The notes under the pieces are model-generated. The model was not told where the DNA came from. It saw only the letters and a program-made list of their open reading frames with translations, and made no database searches. A program made the position numbers and the translations under genes. 64,000 nt of DNA from an uncultured Acidobacteriaceae bacterium (lineage in GTDB: Bacteria; Acidobacteriota; Terriglobia; Terriglobales; Acidobacteriaceae). Positions 53,197 through 62,799 of the stretch are shown here, one piece after another. The stretch is from positions 93,014 through 157,013 of the forward strand of contig CAVSFL010000009.1 in the NCBI GenBank assembly GCA_963727295.1, in the 5' to 3' direction. Position 1 is the first letter of the stretch, and the number at the start of each line of letters is the position of its first letter.

Positions 53197-53201
53197 GATT
53201 C

Positions 53202-53278
53202 TCACCACGGAAGCACGGAAGACACGGAAGAAAATGAAGACAAAATTCCATTCCGTGCATTCCGTGCTTCCGTGGTGA
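53202..53278. repeat. 77-nt purine-rich long hairpin repeat (copy 2)
   Basis: TCACCACGGAAGCACGGAA (53202-53220) pairs with TTCCGTGCTTCCGTGGTGA (53260-53278). Same family as 50156-50255. Confidence 0.85.
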
Positions 53279-53293
53279 CTCCTCTGGTTTCAC

Positions 53294-53656
53294 TTGTCGC
53301 GCATCCTGCTCATCGACGACACGCCGGAAACGGCGGAACTGCTCGCGTTCGCGTTGCGCGATCGCGGCTACGAAGTTTTTGTCGATGGCTATACCACAAC
53401 GCTCAATGAAGTGATCCGTGAGCAACGCGCCGACGCGGTGGTGCTTAACCTGACTACCTGGGACATGAGCGAGTCGCTCTTCGACAGCGTGCGCGACGAC
53501 GGCGGGCACAACGAATTCCCGGTCGTCATTATCAGCGACACGCCGGAGAAGGCGGAGCCAAGCCTGCGCTCGCGGAAGGCGCGCAAAGTCTTGCTCGTCC
53601 AGAAACCATTTACCGGTGGGCAGGTTGCGGCGGCGCTTGCCCAACTGCTGGAGTAA
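53294..53656 (+). CDS. Stand-alone receiver (CheY-like) domain lacking the phospho-acceptor Asp (pseudo-receiver)
   Basis: TTG start. ILLIDDT (acidic pair present), AVVLNLTTW where receivers have D (Asn52, AAC at 53447-53449), and VVIISD...QKPF (T/S and K positions present). Confidence 0.7.
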   Translation: MSRILLIDDTPETAELLAFALRDRGYEVFVDGYTTTLNEVIREQRADAVVLNLTTWDMSESLFDSVRDDGGHNEFPVVIISDTPEKAEPSLRSRKARKVLLVQKPFTGGQVAAALAQLLE

Positions 53657-53658
53657 CG

Positions 53659-53982
53659 ATGTCGACGTGGAGCATGGACGAGTGGCAGTACCTGGAGCGT
53701 GAGGTCGTCACCGATCCCAAAGGCAGAAAGTGGACGGTGGCGCTCATGGACGTCCTTGGGCAGCAGGGCGATCCCGAGATGCCCAGCAAGCTGCTCGAAC
53801 TCCAGTATTCCTCGGGACGCTATTTCACGCTGGTCTACGCACCCGGCGGCGGCTTGCAGCGCGAGCGCGGTTACACAACGTTAGAGGATGCGAACGAAGC
53901 TTACCAGGTGCTGCTGATGGGAGTCATCGACGGCAGCGTCGATCCGGCGCAGCCGGTGTTTCGGCAGGATCTGGAAGACTGA
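53659..53982 (+). CDS. Hypothetical 107-aa protein co-transcribed with the pseudo-receiver
   Basis: The ATG lies 2 nt after the receiver stop. No recognisable motif. Coding status rests on position and ORF integrity only. Confidence 0.45.
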   Translation: MSTWSMDEWQYLEREVVTDPKGRKWTVALMDVLGQQGDPEMPSKLLELQYSSGRYFTLVYAPGGGLQRERGYTTLEDANEAYQVLLMGVIDGSVDPAQPVFRQDLED

Positions 53983-54360
53983 TCACGGCTCGGTTTTCGA
54001 TTGCGAATCGACAATCGCATCGATGATTGCGCGCTCGATGCAGGTGCTCGCATGCTCGGAGAAGTCCCGCTCCGGATCCGTCGGAAAGGTACTCACGGCG
54101 GCCAGCAGCCCAATGTTACCCTCCTGAATTAAATCCAAGATAGACAGACCTGATGATGAGTGTCGTTCCGCAATCTCTACGACCAGAGAGAGCCGGCTTT
54201 CAATGAGTCGTCTTTTCGCAAGCTCTGCCTGTTTTGCATTTGGGCTTTGTGTCTGTAACCAGAGCACCTTCTCTTCTTCTTTCGTTAGAGGCGCAATATT
54301 GGCGGCCTCCCTCAGATACATGCTCACAGGATCGTTACCGTCAGATTGTCTCGTTTCCAT
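53983..54360 (-). CDS. Sigma-70 region 1.2 + region 2-only mini-protein (no regions 3/4)
   Basis: DPVSMYLREAANIAPLTKEEE (r1.2) and AKRRLIESRLSLVVEIAERH...GLSILDLIQEGNIGLLAAVSTF (r2.1/2.2). Then DFSEHASTCIERAIIDAI where RpoD has FSTYATWWIRQAITRAI. The protein ends after 125 aa. Confidence 0.7.
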   Translation of the reverse strand: METRQSDGNDPVSMYLREAANIAPLTKEEEKVLWLQTQSPNAKQAELAKRRLIESRLSLVVEIAERHSSSGLSILDLIQEGNIGLLAAVSTFPTDPERDFSEHASTCIERAIIDAIVDSQSKTEP

Positions 54361-54693
54361 CGATCTGTCCGTTTACGGCAACTTTGATTAGGTGCTGTCC
54401 CTACAAGACTCGGATTCTTTTTGCATCTACCCAGCACCCCGCCTGCGGCTGCGTGCCGGGCTAAGTTATGCCGTGCCTCCGCACTCGATTTTCCTTGTCC
54501 GGTCCGCTGCCGCGCTCGTAAAACAACTTCTCGGAATGCCTGCGGGCGCTTCTCCGCTCTAATCCCGAACTTTCGGCACGAAGTCTACATACAGTCTTCG
54601 CGAGACTCCGTCCAATATATGAAATCGTGACGAGGATGGCCATGTCGTGCGCGGCGCGGCCTGACGCGTCATGGTATTCTCTCGCGGGGATCA

Positions 54694-55857: not shown

Positions 55858-57208
55858 GTGACCAGACGCCTGCCATTATTGCTTCGCCAAGCCATGTACA
55901 ACCTGCGTGGCGGCTTCCTGGTTCGCCCGCTCGCGATTGTGGTGGTGCTGGGCGGAGCAGGGGCGCTGTTCTCGTGGCTGGAAGAAGAATTTCCGGTAGT
56001 CAGCACCTGGGTGCCAAAGGTCCTCTTCCCTTCCCACTCCGACCCGCAGATTGCCCAGGCGATCCTCAGCGACATTGCCACCTCTACCATGACGGTGGTG
56101 TCGATCGTCTTCGCCATCCTGCTCATGACGCTAACGCTGGCGTCGATGCAGTTTTCTCCGCGCATCATTGTCAGCTTCTCGCGCGATCGCGTGACGCAAT
56201 GGACACTGGGAATCTTTCTGGGCACGTTCTCTTACTGCATGGCGGCGCTGCCCACGGCGCGGAGTCTGCCGCATCCCTTCGCGCCGGTAGGGACGGTGCT
56301 GGGTGCCATGGTGCTGGCGCTGTGCTGCGTCGGCTTACTGCTGTTCTTTATTCACCACATCTCGCAGGCGATCAGCGTCAATAACATCGTCGACCGGATC
56401 GCAGCGGAAACGGATGCGATGATCGACGAGGTGATGCCGTGGCCGCATCATCCGGAACGGCCCGACCGGGTTGAGCCGCTGCGGCCGAATCCAACAGAAG
56501 CGCCGATCCTGAGCTCGACATCCGGCTATATCCGGTTTGTCGACAAGAACCAGCTGGTGGCAGTGGCCAAGCACTCTCACGTCACCGTGCGGGTGTTACG
56601 GCGCGTCGGTCACTTCGTTCCGGCGGGAGTGCCGCTGATGATGGTCTCCAAGGCGAACCGGCTCTCAGAGACGGCAACGGAGGAGTTGCTGGCCGCTTTC
56701 GACCTGGGCCCGACGCGGACGCTGCAGCAGGACATCGAGTTCGGTGTGTTGCAGATTGTCGATGTTGCGCTGCGCGCCATCTCGCCGGCGGTCAACGATC
56801 CCACCACGGCCATCAACTGCGTCGACCAGCTAAGCCGCATCCTGATTCGTTTCGCCTCGCGCCAGGCGCCGGACGATCTGCTCTACGATCCTCCCGGGAT
56901 CGTTCGCGCCAGCATAGAGCTCGATGCACTTCGACCGCCTGCTGGAGGCGGCCTTCGAGCAGATCCGCATTTATTCCAGAAGCGACATGGCCGTGAGTTT
57001 GCGGCTGCTGCGCGCGTTGAACGACATTGCCGTCACGACCGCCGATCCGGAATACCGCCGCACCCTTGCGGAACAGGGCTGGCGAACGGTCGCCGGCTGC
57101 GCCGAACGCTTCAGCGAAGAAGAGATGCGGGAGCTGGGGGCGCGTCAGGCGGCGCTGCAGAGTTTGAGCACGGTGTTGCAATCAGGCGTGGCCGCCCCTC
57201 AGCCGTGA
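55858..57208 (+). pseudogene. DUF2254-type membrane protein; +1 frame break near 56925-56928
   Basis: ORF 55858-57321 is plausible up to ...IVRASIELDA, then becomes Arg/Gly-rich nonsense. ORF 56924-57208 in the next frame reads (M)HFDRLLEAAFEQIRIYSRSDMAVSLRLLRALNDIA, the expected conserved C-terminus. Confidence 0.7.
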
Positions 57209-57354
57209 GTAGCCGCATTGTCACAGGCTGCCTCACAAAGTCACCGCGCGACGTTCGCGCTCAGTGGTCCCCGTCATCTACCATACCGAGACCGACGGTT
57301 CGCCGGGCAGCATCCGGCTGACAACTGACAACCGGCAACTGACAACTGTTTCTC

Positions 57355-58585
57355 ATGGCTGAGCACACTGCGATCTTCAAGGAACTGTCCTACATCTTCA
57401 TCGCCGCCATTCTTGGCGGAGCGGTGGCATGGCGGCTGCGGCAACCGCTGATTCTTGGCTACGTGCTGGCGGGAATCGCGATCAGCCCGTTCACGCCTGG
57501 ACCGGCGGTTCGCGCGGCGCACACGTTTCAGATCGTCGCCGAGGTCGGCGTGGTGCTGCTGATGTTCTCCATCGGCCTGGAATTCTCGCTGGACGAACTG
57601 GCCGAGGTGAAGTGGGTGGCGCTGGCCGGCGGACCGCTGGGCGTGGTGCTGCTCTCGGCGCTGGGTGCGGGCGTGGGCGCCATTGTTGGGCTGGGGCGCG
57701 CGGTGCGGCATGGTGGTCGGGATGATCATCTCGGTCGCCAGTACGATGGTGCTGTCGCGGCTGCTGATGGACAGCGGCGAGCTGCAATCACCGCACGGCA
57801 AGGTGATGATCGGCATCACGCTGGTGGAGGACCTGGTTGTGGTGGTGCTGACCATCCTGATGCCGGTGCTGGCCAGCCTGTCGCCGCATCATCTGCTGGG
57901 CGTCGCGATGGCGCTGGGCAAGGCCGCGCTGATCCTGGCGCCCATTGGATTTCTCGCCGTGTACCTCGTGCCACGGTGGCTGGCGCAGGTGGCACGCGCG
58001 GAGAACAAAGAGCTGTTCCTGCTGGTGATCCTGGCGATCTGCCTGGGCACGGCGGCGCTAACCGAAGCGGTTGGGTTGTCGCTGGCGTTGGGAGCGTTTG
58101 CGGCCGGGCTGATCGTGAGCGCGTCCGATTATGCGCATCGGGCGCTCGATCAGATGCTGCCGCTGCGCGATGCGTTCGTGGCGCTGTTCTTCGTGACGGT
58201 GGGAACGCTGATGAATCCGCGAGCCGTGTTTCTCCGGCCGGGCCTGCTGTTGACGGTTCTGCTGCTGGTGATCGTGGGCAAATTCGTCGTGTGGACTGGG
58301 GTAGTGCGGCTGTTTCGCTACCGGCTGCGGACAGCGGCGCTGGTTGGGACCGGGCTGACGCAGATCGGAGAATTCTCGTTCATCCTGGTGCAGGTGGCGC
58401 ACGCCAACGCGCTGGTGGGCGATGAGCTCTACCACGCGACGCTGGCGGCGTCGCTGATCTCAATCCTGATCAATGCCACGCTGGTGCGCACGATGCCAGC
58501 CTGGCTGAATGCGGCGCAAGGTGGGGTAATCGGGCGGGTACTCCCCGGGGATTTGCGGTTGCAGGCGGGCGGGTCGGAGGTCTAG
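57355..58585 (+). pseudogene. CPA2-family cation:proton antiporter (Kef/NapA-like membrane domain); +1 frame break near 57680-57710
   Basis: ORF 57355-58425 is membrane-like up to ...GAGVGAIVGLG, then turns Arg-rich. ORF 57665-58585 in the next frame continues LGWGAR.GMVVGMIISVASTMVLSRLL...GAFAAGLIVS... Confidence 0.8.
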
Positions 58586-58855: not shown

Positions 58856-61800
58856 TTGCTCAAGTTAAAGAAGCTCCAAATCCTCGGCTTCAAGTCGTTC
58901 TGCGACCGCACCGACCTCCGCTTCCAGGGCGAGGGCATCACCGCCATCGTCGGCCCCAACGGCTGCGGCAAGTCGAATATCTCCGACGCCATCTCCTGGG
59001 TGCTGGGCGAGCAGTCGGCGCGGCTGCTGCGCGGCGTCCACATGCAGGACGTCATCTTCGCCGGCACGCGCGAGCGCAAGCCCACCGGCATGGCTGAGGT
59101 GTCGCTGACGCTGGTTGACCCGGAAGTCTACGGCGATGTCGCCGAGCCGGAGATCGACATTCAGGACGAGATGACGGAGGACGATTGGGACGAGGCGGCC
59201 CAGCGTGCCACTCGCGCCGCCGATGTCGAGAGCTACTCCGAGGAAGTGCGGCCGGGACAGACGGATGAAGAAGGTGCGACGGCAGTTTCGGGTGCAGCCC
59301 CTGATACAGGCGAGTCTGCGGACGCTCAGGATACGGTGCCTGAATCAGAAAGTTGTCATCACGAGCGAAGCGAGGGATCTGCTGTTAGCCCCGCGGCAGA
59401 AGCCGAGTCGGCGACCGCCAGTACACCCCAAGTCGTCCTGAAGATTCGCCGCCGCAAGTTCAAGCGGACCTTCAAGGCCGGCGAAATCCAGATCACGCGG
59501 CGTCTCTTCCGCTCCGGCGAAAGCGAATACCTGCTGAACGGCAAGCTCTGCCGCCTGCGCGACATTCAAGACATCTTCATGGGCACCGGCCTTGGCCCCG
59601 AGTCGTACGCCATCATCGAGCAGGGTCGCATCGGGCAGATCCTGAGCAGCAAGCCGACCGATCGTCGCGCCATCATTGAAGAGGCTGCCGGCATCACCAA
59701 GTACAAAGCGCGCAAGCGGCTGGCCGAAGCGCGCCTGGAAGACGCCAAGCTCAACCTGAACCGCATCAACGACATCTTCGACGAAGTGACGCGGCAGATG
59801 AATTCGCTGAAGCGGCAGGCGTCGAAGGCTGAGCGCTACGCCAAACTGCGCGACGAGATGCGCGTCAAGCTGCGCGTCGTATTGGCGAGCAAGTTTGCCC
59901 AGCTTGATGTGGAAGCTGCGACGCTGGAGCAGCAACTCAGCGAAGTTGCCAATGAGATTCATGCGCAGAGTGAGGCCGTGCAGCAGATGGAAGGCGAGCA
60001 CGGCGAGCGCACCCAGCGCGGCTATGCCATCGAGCGCGAGTCGCAGGAGAATCGCGAGAAGCTGAACTCGTTGGCACTCGATCTGGATCGCGCGGCGGCT
60101 CGCCGCCGCACCAATGAAGAGCGCTGTGCGGAACTCGATGCCCGTTCCGCCGGTGCGCAGGCGGAGATCGCCAACACCGAAGAGCATTCTGGGCGCCTGC
60201 AGCAAGAGCTGGAAACCGATCGCGCGACGCTGGAGTCGGCAAATGGCGATGTTGCGAACGCGCAGCAGGAGTTGCAACAGCGACAGCAGGAAGCCTCCTC
60301 GGCTTCCGCATTGCTGATCGAAGTCGAGCGCAAGCAGGAAGAGCGGCGCGATGCAATTCTGCAGGCGGTGTCAGGAGCTTCCGCGGTTCGCAATCGCATC
60401 ACGCAAGCGGAAGAACGCATGGCCGCGCTCAACCGCGAGTCGCAGCGACTGGACAGCGAACGGAACACGGCCAATCAGCAACTGGAGAGCTTCGGCGGGC
60501 AGCGCGGACAACTTGGGCTGGAGTTCGAGACGGTTTCGCAACGAGTGATCATGATCTCGGCGCAGATTGTCGACACGCGTTCCAAGCTGGAAGCGAAGCG
60601 CACCGCTGAGACCGAAGCCAAGCGCCAGCTCGATTCCATGCGCGGCGAATATGCGTCGCTGATGGGCAAGCGCGCCTCGCTGGAAGGCGCCATCACCGAG
60701 CATGGCTACGCGACCGATTCCGTGCGCAAGCTGTTCACTTCGGGAGCGCTGCAAGGTGGGACGCGCGCCCGCAGGCGTGCTGGCAGACTTTCTCGAGGTT
60801 GAAGATCGTTACGAGCACGTGGTCGACGACTTTCTGCGCGATGAGTTGAACTACATCGTGGTGAAGTCGTGGGATGCGGCGGACGAAGGTCTGCGGCTGT
60901 TGCGGACCGATGTCGATGGCCGGGCGACATTCCTGGTTCATCCCGAAGATTCGCAGGCGAAGTTCTCGTTTGACTTCAACGAGTCGATGCATCACGTCTC
61001 GCACGCCGATACGGTTGTTCCCCTCAAGAACTGCATTCGCGTACTCGACGGCTTTGGCAAGTCGCTGGAAGTGATTCTGCCCAAGCTGGGCAACGGGTAC
61101 ATCGTGCCCGATCCCGAAGTCGGACGCACGCTCGCGCTGGAAAATCCTGATGCGTTCTTCCTCTCGCGATCGGGCGAGTGCTTCCATAACGTGACCGTCA
61201 CCGGCGGCAAACAGCGCAGCCAGGGCCCGCTCTCGATGAAGCGCGAACTGCGCGATGTGCTGCTGCAGATGGGCGAACTGGAGCGCGCCATCGGCGAGAA
61301 GGAGACCTTCATCGCTGCGGTCGCACGCGAAATCGCTGACCTGACGGAGTTGGTCGAGCGGTTGGAAGACGAGAAGCGCGAATCGGAACGCGAAGCTATG
61401 ACCTCCGAGCACACGCTGCGCCAGCTGGAAGGCGAGATGACACGCGTGCGCGAGCGGCTCTCAACGTACGAGCGCGAGCTGCAACGAATCGACGAAGAGC
61501 ACAGCGATCGGGAGAATTTCATTACCTCGCAGCTGGTCGAACTGTTCCAGCACGAGGAGAAGCAGCGCGGGCTGGAAGCCGAGATGCAGGAGGCGCAGAG
61601 CAATCTGGAGGTTCTGCGACAGCATCGCGATGATGCGGCGCAGATCGCTGCCGACGTTCGCGCCAATGTTGCGATGCTGGAAGAACGCCGCCGCGGAGCC
61701 ATGCTCACCGTGCAGCGCATTGAGGCGATGTTGTCGGAGGTTTCGGCGCATCTGGCGAAGTTGAAGGCGCAGCTTGAGGCGGCGATCGCCGAGAAGCAGC

Positions 61801-62799
61801 AGCGCGAGGCGGAGAACGTTCATCTTGCGGAGCAGGTCATTGCGTGGACGGCTGAGCGCGAAGCGCGCGCAGCAGCGCGATCGCGAGTTGCAGGAAGAAT
61901 TGCAGGCCGTGCGTCTGCGCATCGTCGAGCTGGAAGAAGTGTTGAAGTCGGCGCGCGAGGCGCTGGATGCGGCGCGCGATCGCCGCGGGGAACTCTCAGC
62001 CGCGCAGGCGCGAGTGCAGTCCGACGTTCAGCACATGGCCGAGACCTGCATTCAGGAACTCAGCCAGCAGCGCGACGAATTGATGGCCGACACTTCCCTG
62101 CCCCGCGTCGCGGGCGAGGAGCTGATCAGCGAAGACAACGCCTATCGCGAGATGCGCACGCGGCTCGACAACATGGGCCCGGTGAACATGATGGCGCTGG
62201 AGGAGTACAAGGAGACGGCCGAGCGGCATCAGTTCCTGGAGACGCAGCGGCAGGATTTGCTGCAATCGATCGAGAACACACAGAATACGATCAAAGAGAT
62301 CGACGTCATCTCGCGGCAGAAGTTCGAAGAGGCGTTCAACATCATCAACGAGAACTTCGGCAAGACGTTCAGCAAGCTCTTCGGCGGCGGCCAGGGCTTC
62401 ATGCGGCTGACCGATCTGGAAAACTCGATGGAAAGCGGGATCGACGTGGTGGCGTCGCCTCCGGGCAAGAAGCTGCAGAATGTGCTGCTGCTTTCCGGCG
62501 GCGAGAAGGCGCTGACCGCGCTGGCGCTGCTGGTGGGCATCTTCCAGTATCAGCCCAGCCCGTTCTGCATTCTCGACGAGGTTGACGCGCCGCTGGACGA
62601 AGCCAACGTCGGCCGCTTCACCGAACTGGTGCGCGACATGAGCGTGCAGACGCAGTTCATCATCATCACCCACAGCAAGAAGACGATGAACATGGCGCCG
62701 GTGCTCTACGGTGTGACCATGCAGGAGCCAGGCGTGTCGAAGCTGGTGTCGGTACGCTTCGGCGAGGAGAAGGCGGCGCTGGTGGTGGCGAGGGCGTAG
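58856..62799 (+). pseudogene. smc: Chromosome partition protein SMC, broken by two +1 frame shifts (~60758-60772 and ~61863-61871)
   Basis: Three successive ORFs in frames 2, 3 and 1. The head carries Walker A GPNGCGKSN. The hinge is GVLADFLEVEDRYEHVVDDFL...NYIVV. The C-terminal head has LSGGEKALTALALL and ILDEVDAPLD. An AAGGAG RBS precedes the TTG at 58856. Confidence 0.9.

Follow-up and report, generated by a model that had tools for sequence, protein, structure and literature searches.

A stand-alone sigma domain 2 protein of Terriglobia with a remodelled DNA face: a candidate promoter-blind occupant of the sigma site on RNA polymerase

The locus and its genes

The gene considered here lies on the minus strand at positions 53983-54360 of the window, by which we mean the whole 64,000-nt stretch of DNA from a soil member of the Acidobacteriaceae that was analysed. 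It encodes, from an ATG start, a protein of 125 aa which we refer to as the mini-sigma, and the motifs LDLIQEGNIGLLAAV and DFSEHASTCIERAIIDAI are found in it exactly as they were quoted in an earlier note made from the DNA alone. It is flanked by a tandem-Usp gene that diverges from it and by a gene of 107 aa with no assigned function that converges on it (53659-53982, plus strand), the stop codon of the 107-aa gene directly abutting that of the mini gene (TGA/TCA). The spacer towards the tandem-Usp gene (54361-54693) was described in the earlier note as a 330-nt upstream region belonging to the mini gene, and it is indeed present with a length of 333 nt, but it is common to both genes and also serves the divergent one. 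On the other side, the 107-aa gene is the last of an operon made up of 2-oxoacid:ferredoxin oxidoreductase genes, a 166-aa ORF and a stand-alone receiver domain (53294-53656, plus strand), which has Asn at the phospho-acceptor position and is therefore called a pseudo-receiver below; these downstream plus-strand genes are as the earlier note had described them.

The abutting convergent stops are conserved among the closest relatives, the sequence being TGATCA in the window (53980-53985) and in L034 (3471-3476) and TAGTCA in L017 (6361-6366), and since there is no intervening terminator the transcripts of the mini gene and of the 107-aa gene must overlap at their 3' ends.

Domain content, predicted fold and truncation

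The mini-sigma consists of region 1.2, a short linker and regions 2.1-2.3, and it stops where region 2.4 would continue. Residues 10-33 (54262-54333, minus strand; DPVSMYLREAANIAPLTKEEEKVL) make up the region 1.2 helix and the next turn and are matched by the Pfam family Sigma70_r1_2 (PF00140; E=1.1e-5, 25.7 bits vs a cut-off of 22), and residues 52-119 are matched by Sigma70_r2 (PF04542; E=6e-13, 48.8 bits vs a cut-off of 24), so that the profile check suggested in the earlier note gives both domains above the Pfam gathering cut-offs, while neither Sigma70_r3 nor Sigma70_r4 finds a Pfam match within the ORF. The best NCBIfam match is the RpoD model PRK09210 (E=1e-23), of which only profile positions 98-204 out of 370 are covered, and indeed it is only the middle part of the RpoD and RpoS models of this collection that is matched. 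An AlphaFold2 model based on a 34-sequence family alignment comprises six helices with a mean pLDDT of 87, and in a Foldseek comparison with the PDB it superposes on sigma domain 2 of SigA, RpoS and RpoD, the rmsd to sigma-S chains being 1.8 Å over 107-110 columns with 39-42% identity. Furthermore, in a phmmer comparison with PDB sequences residues 39-119 pair with residues 366-446 of E. coli sigma70 with no gap in the alignment, and residue n of the mini-sigma thus equals sigma70 residue n+327; the C-terminus is equivalent to sigma70 residue 452.

Pfam, NCBIfam, the model and the sigma70 mapping hence all agree with the by-eye alignment to RpoD regions 1.2, 2.1 and 2.2 given in the earlier note, and we can conclude from the profile matches and the predicted structure that the gene product has the sigma-2 fold and represents sigma domain 2 on its own, with region 1.2 and regions 2.1-2.3. 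This is the same fold as that of domain 2 of RpoD, SigA and RpoS, and the likeness includes about 50% identity to the genome's own RpoD over regions 2.1-2.3, a region 2.2 core-binding motif that is identical, and, as in SigA of Firmicutes and in sigma-S, a region 1.2 helix without the non-conserved insert. Unlike these sigma factors, however, the mini-sigma is a stand-alone protein of 125 aa that lacks region 1.1, a complete region 2.4 and regions 3 and 4, and it is acidic rather than basic, with both the melting aromatics and the basic DNA contacts replaced.

Since genes with apparent frame breaks are present in the window, a sequencing artefact had to be weighed as the cause of the early end, but it is excluded by the fact that all relatives end at the same place, the aligned family members all terminating just past the region 2.3 helix. 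When the genome's own 564-aa RpoD was compared by tblastn with the whole 6.1-Mb assembly, the only matches were RpoD itself and, at the mini gene, RpoD residues 320-397, and RpoD-like counterparts of region 2.4 onward, region 3 and region 4 are thus absent both downstream of the mini gene and elsewhere in the assembly, RpoD excepted. A hidden frameshift or read-through into regions 3 and 4 is thereby ruled out, and the earlier note's contention to this effect is upheld on the scale of the whole genome. As to the frame breaks themselves, a DUF2254 gene (window 55858-57321), a Na+/H+ exchanger gene (57355-58585) and smc (58856-62585) each appear split over two overlapping frames, as would be the case if the assembly contained frameshifts or indel errors here.

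Residues that are kept and residues that are replaced

Conservation and charge were assessed in 118 family sequences. The motif D-P-V-x-x-Y-x-R-E of region 1.2 is kept in the family, D10, P11, Y15, E18, P24 and L25 being conserved at 94-100%, and in region 2.2 the positions L75, D76, Q79, E80, G81, N82 and G84 of the core-binding motif LDLIQEGNIGL (54106-54138, minus strand; residues 75-85, equivalent to sigma70 402-412) are conserved at 92-100%. Taken singly, L57 (100%), V60 (98%), L75 (99%), D76 (92%), Q79 (99%), E80 (98%) and N82 (100%) correspond to sigma70 L384, V387, L402, D403, Q406, E407 and N409, among which D403, Q406, E407 and N409 are core-binding residues of region 2.2 (10.1101/2020.09.07.285775), and the sigma70 substitutions L402F, E407K and N409D change the interaction of sigma with core via the beta-prime coiled coil (PMC3326312). 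The core-binding surface, which the earlier note had taken to be intact, is thus at the sequence level made up of residues that are nearly invariant across the family.

The remodelled region 2.3 (54019-54069, minus strand; residues 98-114, RDFSEHASTCIERAIID) departs from sigma70 by Y425R, K426D, Y430H, W433T, W434C, R436E and R441D. The loss of the aromatics needed for melting of the -10 element, as claimed in the earlier note, is therefore real (Y425R, Y430H, W433T, W434C), and it is accompanied by a reversal of charge; alanine at any one of sigma70 Y425, Y430, W433 or W434 weakens melting (10.1101/2020.09.07.285775). The family consensus reads G-D-F-T-A-H-A-A-A-C-I-E-D in this region, and the positions of Y425, Y430, W433 and W434 are accordingly G/H/A/C in the consensus and R/H/T/C in the window, while the R436 position is Glu in 85% of the members, the equivalents of Q437, T440 and R441 vary across the family, and the Lys and Arg residues of sigma70 414-426 have given way to neutral, acidic or proline residues. 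The median pI of the family is 4.9 (range 4.3-6.3) vs 9.6 for the same segment of the genome's RpoD, and the net charge of the mini-sigma is about -8. The family-specific replacements are themselves conserved (A93, P96, G98, D99, H103, C107 and E109), the former DNA face having been remodelled under constraint and not by drift. Judged as a sigma-70 factor, the mini-sigma hence has the core-binding surface and neither the -10 melting residues nor a sigma-4 domain.

These replacements bear directly on the notion that the mini-sigma is a minimal sigma factor which, like T4 gp55, reads a -10-like element alone and serves a small regulon. It should be mentioned that gp55, which works with gp33 and gp45, is likewise related to sigma-2 only and attaches to the beta-prime clamp helices while having no sigma-4, and factors of this type show that sigma-4 is not strictly needed; furthermore F92 and F100 (sigma70 F419 and F427) are kept, Tyr occupies the Y430 position in 25% of the family, and some full-length sigmas, e.g. 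L027 and L033, are also devoid of the Trp dyad. Nonetheless we consider this explanation very improbable, as the helix stops short of a complete region 2.4, the residues for reading -12/-13 (Q437, T440 and R441) are not conserved, the basic DNA contacts are replaced in a protein of strongly negative charge, and no conserved upstream motif is found across the family loci. In addition, gp55 is a phage protein that recognises late promoters by a -10-like element, whereas no mini-sigma occurs among the best 80 of 407 sigma matches in IMG/VR. The sigmas L027 and L033 stem from Ca. Marinacidobacterium chromosomes and possess regions 2-4, with H-A-A-T/N-C-I where group-1 sigmas have Y-A-T-W-W-I, and the His/Cys replacement is thus also found in complete sigmas.

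Family, selection and distribution

A database search limited to proteins of similar length gave 372 homologues of about 113-150 aa, many of them inside long contigs (up to 1.37 Mb), with source names that point to Terriglobales and Korobacteraceae. In a tree with region 2 of Terriglobales RpoD the short proteins group together as a single clade (SH-aLRT 100), whose stem of about 1 substitution per site is followed by slow divergence. Nei-Gojobori dN/dS among nine members is 0.13-0.30, with dS saturated, and 0.42 for the closest pair, in which few sites differ. As far as such sequence comparisons can tell, the mini-sigma is not a relic but a genuine, selected protein consisting of sigma regions 1.2 and 2 only, which has a group-1/2 RpoD-type sigma factor as its ancestor and persists under purifying selection as a small accessory protein of some Terriglobia.

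The earlier note had reckoned with an unconserved relic, and a decaying, functionless remnant of a duplicated sigma gene might indeed be invoked to explain the patchy distribution, the three copies that contain a stop or a frameshift and the atypical composition described below. Such a reading is however contradicted by the dN/dS values at saturated dS, by the common length and end point of the 372 homologues, by the conservation of the family-specific substitutions and by the monophyly of a clade with a long stem and slow subsequent divergence, and it seems hardly tenable to us.

A profile search of 1.84 billion cluster representatives returned 43 clusters at E<=1e-30, and about 30 of these represent genuine short members. 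Long matches in several stretches were considered as further family members and rejected, since 13 of the 14 examined are full-length sigma-type sequences, most of them with an internally repeated stretch. The fourteenth, P0121 (213 aa, metagenomic), does belong to the family; it is a fusion with a Clp_N repeat (PF02861, E=5e-10) at the N-terminus, and the core-binding motif has changed to LIQKGNSGL. In 185,579 species genomes scanned by motif there were 19 loci; full-length sigmas account for three of them (L027, L032 and L033), and the other 16 all belong to metagenome-assembled genomes (MAGs) of Terriglobia, namely Acidobacteriaceae, Terriglobales, Ca. Sulfotelmatobacter and one labelled Bryobacteraceae. 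The family, with proteins of about 115-135 aa, is thus seen only in Terriglobia MAGs. Within the window's genus a copy is present in only one other of 24 species, where it is frameshifted after region 2.2, and among the matches listed for 300 genomes sampled across the phylum there was no other short homologue. The carriers have one mini gene alongside a single RpoD, except for one genome with two copies. Three family copies are interrupted, L025 by an in-frame stop, L026 by a frameshift and L002 (genome G004) by a frameshift after region 2.2, which may represent real decay or assembly errors, all carriers being MAGs.

A phage origin was rejected, as the best 80 of 407 sigma matches in IMG/VR contain no family member and are all full-length with the Trp dyad intact. 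Membership of a defence system was likewise rejected, PADLOC and PHROGs giving generic sigma-domain matches only. One of these concerns MzaA of the anti-phage MZA system, where mini-sigma residues 49-119 match positions 431-501 of the 683 positions of MzaA in PADLOC and the NCBIfam score is 55 bits vs a cut-off of 800; it is a match at the domain level only and the mini-sigma does not qualify as an MZA component.

With 52% GC and 56% GC3 the mini gene lies below the genome medians for long frames (60% and 70%) and below its neighbours, whose GC3 is 65-80%, and in seven other family contexts the mini gene likewise has the lowest or nearly the lowest GC3 among its neighbours. Since the low GC3 persists where synonymous sites are saturated, it looks like a property of the gene itself, e.g. 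weak codon adaptation, rather than a sign of recent transfer.

Gene neighbourhood and the question of a partner

The arrangement found in the window recurs in L034, which holds a 91%-identical homologue, and in L017 (68%-identical), but L037 (74%-identical) and all more distant members are found in unrelated locations, e.g. with sugar-nucleotide genes, a sigma-54 two-component pair, haem-synthesis genes or glycosyltransferases. In an all-against-all BLAST of the neighbours at 21 loci no conserved operon partner emerged, conservation being confined to the window, L034 and L017, and the 107-aa gene is consequently not a family-wide partner. The functional tie to the pseudo-receiver operon that was proposed in the earlier note is therefore not a trait of the family, and the proximity of the two amounts to local synteny only.

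Eight congeners keep the block from the oxidoreductase to the 107-aa gene, and their syntenic site is devoid of sigma genes, whether short or full-length. The next gene is instead a convergent one of about 220-264 aa with no assigned function (27 nt away in L133), an orthologue of which (54% identity) is found just upstream of the mini gene in L017. A full-length sigma at the syntenic site of relatives, which the earlier note had named as a mark of a relic, is thus ruled out for these eight, and the mini gene is a presence/absence polymorphism at this site. It follows from its absence at this site in the eight congeners and from its apparently broken state in three genomes that the mini gene is dispensable. 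The phospho-acceptor position of the stand-alone receiver is occupied by Asn in the window, L034, L017, G001 and G012 and by the canonical Asp in six other congeners (from the set L133-L140), i.e. Asp/Asn is a polymorphism within one orthologous group. The idea that the change from Asp to Asn tracks the mini gene was discarded, since G001 and G012 have Asn but not the gene.

The neighbourhoods are of particular relevance for a further alternative, namely that the mini-sigma is the region-2 subunit of a split sigma factor, in which a separate protein of the sigma-4 type reads the promoter and the mini-sigma supplies clamp-helix binding and stabilization of the open complex, as in RsoA-SigO, Sig8-Sig7 and gp55-gp33. 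Small sigma-2-like proteins that work in this way do exist: RsoA (YvrHa) of the B. subtilis RsoA-SigO pair and Sig8 of the Tn916 Sig7-Sig8 pair are small, resemble sigma region 2 only and associate with RNA polymerase, and MacLellan et al. are said to have reported in 2009 that RsoA binds the beta-prime coiled coil. The region-2 core-binding motif needed by such a subunit is kept exactly in the mini-sigma, and the genome has many sigma-4-containing genes. However, RsoA and Sig8 are encoded beside their sigma-4 partners, as is the rule for known split sigmas, and they are needed for promoter opening, whereas the mini gene has no linked partner: there is no conserved neighbour in about 20 contexts, nor is there a sigma-4 domain among those neighbours that carry a Pfam annotation, and no adjacent, co-transcribed gene for a sigma-4 or flap-binding protein was found among them. 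Furthermore, the mini-sigma is clearly derived from RpoD and not ECF-like, its melting residues are replaced and its surface is acidic. A stand-alone sigma-3/4 partner elsewhere in the genome was also sought and dismissed, the Pfam Sigma70_r4 scan giving ordinary ECF and other sigmas and two apparently frame-split ECF genes, with no RpoD-like sigma-4 standing alone and no RpoD-like sigma-3/4 fragment. On balance we regard a split sigma as unlikely. The two ECF-type genes (C15:362329-362761 and C13:594556-595007 of the same genome) have regions 2 and 4 in separate short frames of 117 + 99 aa and 137 + 136 aa, and they are either frameshifted or naturally split.

Possible role at the sigma site of RNA polymerase

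A central part in bacterial gene control is played by the competition of sigma factors for core RNA polymerase, and the endogenous modulators that are known target either sigma (anti-sigmas, Rsd, Crl) or another part of the polymerase (6S RNA, DksA). The conserved docking surface in combination with the remodelled DNA face may suggest that the mini-sigma is a sigma-2 mimic which occupies the sigma site on core RNA polymerase and is blind to promoters; this is the best-supported of the readings considered, and we hold it to be quite possible though we would stop short of calling it probable. With its region 2.1/2.2 surface the mini-sigma would attach to the beta-prime clamp helices of core RNA polymerase or of the elongating enzyme, and because it presumably could neither position nor open a promoter, it would be a promoter-blind occupant of the sigma-2 site. 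By competing with sigma-70-family factors for core it would damp or re-weight the formation of holoenzyme. The N-terminal domain of NusG uses the same clamp-helix site as sigma-2 and might be a further competitor, and the conserved acidic face that has taken the place of the DNA face (A93, P96, G98, D99, H103, C107 and E109) may carry a second contact. We infer the binding to beta-prime and the competition with sigma from the predicted fold, the pattern of conservation and the lost DNA determinants, and the unrelated gene neighbourhoods of the family fit a factor that acts on the general transcription machinery. It should also be mentioned, however, that sigma-2 by itself should have a weaker hold on core than a sigma with several domains, so that competition would need high levels of the mini-sigma, and the low GC3 in all eight contexts weakly suggests modest expression as opposed to the high levels that a stoichiometric competitor needs.

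The dispensability of the mini gene counts against this reading as well. A further point against the mimic of polymerase-bound sigma is that a partner of the anti-sigma kind, gripping the same surface, would likewise be expected to keep region 2.2 invariant. The mini-sigma could then be a decoy that titrates a protein binding to RpoD domain 2, be it an anti-sigma-like factor or a sigma-2-binding activator, off the real sigma. Sigma mimicry is an established mechanism (PMC4551977 and PMC5898713), and in this respect the sigma-like domain of PhyR, which works by protein mimicry and captures NepR in the alphaproteobacterial general stress response, is an analogue, being like the mini-sigma derived from a sigma factor and degenerate in its promoter-binding residues. 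In line with a decoy, the RpoD surface is closely copied in regions 1.2, 2.1 and 2.2 next to a new conserved acidic face, and in two contexts STAS-domain genes are found less than 2 kb from the mini gene. PhyR is however ECF-like, with sigma-2, sigma-4 and a fused C-terminal receiver, and targets NepR, whereas the mini-sigma is an RpoD-type sigma-2 domain only and the receiver near its gene is a separate convergent gene that is found there in the closest relatives only. In addition, STAS genes are common and their proximity is limited to these two contexts, no candidate for a cognate anti-sigma of the NepR kind came to light, and no partner gene or linked small gene is conserved. To our knowledge no sigma-2-binding regulator of RpoD is known in Terriglobia, nor was one found here. 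Taken together this makes a decoy function quite improbable.

The nearest systems that a full-text search of the literature brought up are the split sigmas RsoA-SigO, Sig7-Sig8 and gp55-gp33 and mimicry of the PhyR type, and the search turned up no account from Acidobacteriota of a sigma-2-only family that derives from RpoD, is acidic and lacks the melting residues. Sigma-like proteins of the 'Domain2Only' class, which share with the mini-sigma the presence of sigma-2 and the lack of sigma-4, are reported to be common among both bacteria and phages, with no functions assigned, and most of them are placed with ECF-like, early-branching lineages (Tiwary & Seshasayee, October 2026, bioRxiv 10.64898/2026.10.08.757525). 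The mini-sigma family differs from them as a late truncation derived from RpoD in which the DNA face has been remodelled. Sigma mimics and proteins made up of sigma-2 only are thus already known as such, and what is new here is, by the evidence of its sequences, an RpoD-derived, acidic and melting-deficient family in Terriglobia.

If the mini-sigma does act as a promoter-blind mimic on the polymerase, a host-encoded copy of sigma-2 that blocks the docking site of sigma would represent a different and very simple principle of control, and a natural minimal ligand of the clamp helices would be at hand from a dominant and poorly studied soil phylum. The more general notion that Terriglobia encode a dedicated 'pseudo-sigma' on the clamp helices of free core or elongating polymerase, tuning sigma competition, NusG loading or polymerase storage, can be put forward only tentatively. 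The mini-sigma is in any case a concrete example of sigma 'minimisation' for the debate on how the domain architecture of sigma factors has evolved.

Upstream region and minor features of the locus

The spacer 54361-54693 contains one sigma70-like promoter match, located on the minus strand (TGGCCA-17-TATATT, 54642-54614), and the ATG of the mini-sigma is not preceded by a clear Shine-Dalgarno sequence. A structured RNA in the 333-nt leader was considered and rejected, as the only candidate, Acido-Lenti-1 (54442-54485, plus strand), scores 20.9 bits vs a gathering score of 37 (E=0.12). A promoter or operator motif common to the upstream regions of the family loci was not found. In one subfamily (L013, L021, L023, L031, L039 and L042) a hairpin CTGTT-NNN-AACAG is present about 20-40 nt before a start of the MLEMEMTHM type and could be an operator or a translational element. 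The upstream spacer of L034 contains, at about 2770-2885, a palindromic MITE-like insertion of 116 nt that is absent from the spacer of the window, with which it is otherwise about 90% identical. Finally, an 80-nt purine/pyrimidine mirror hairpin, which gives spurious sub-threshold Rfam matches to plant miRNAs, is found between the 166-aa ORF and the start of the pseudo-receiver (53198-53281) and is probably a repeat element of the window's genome.
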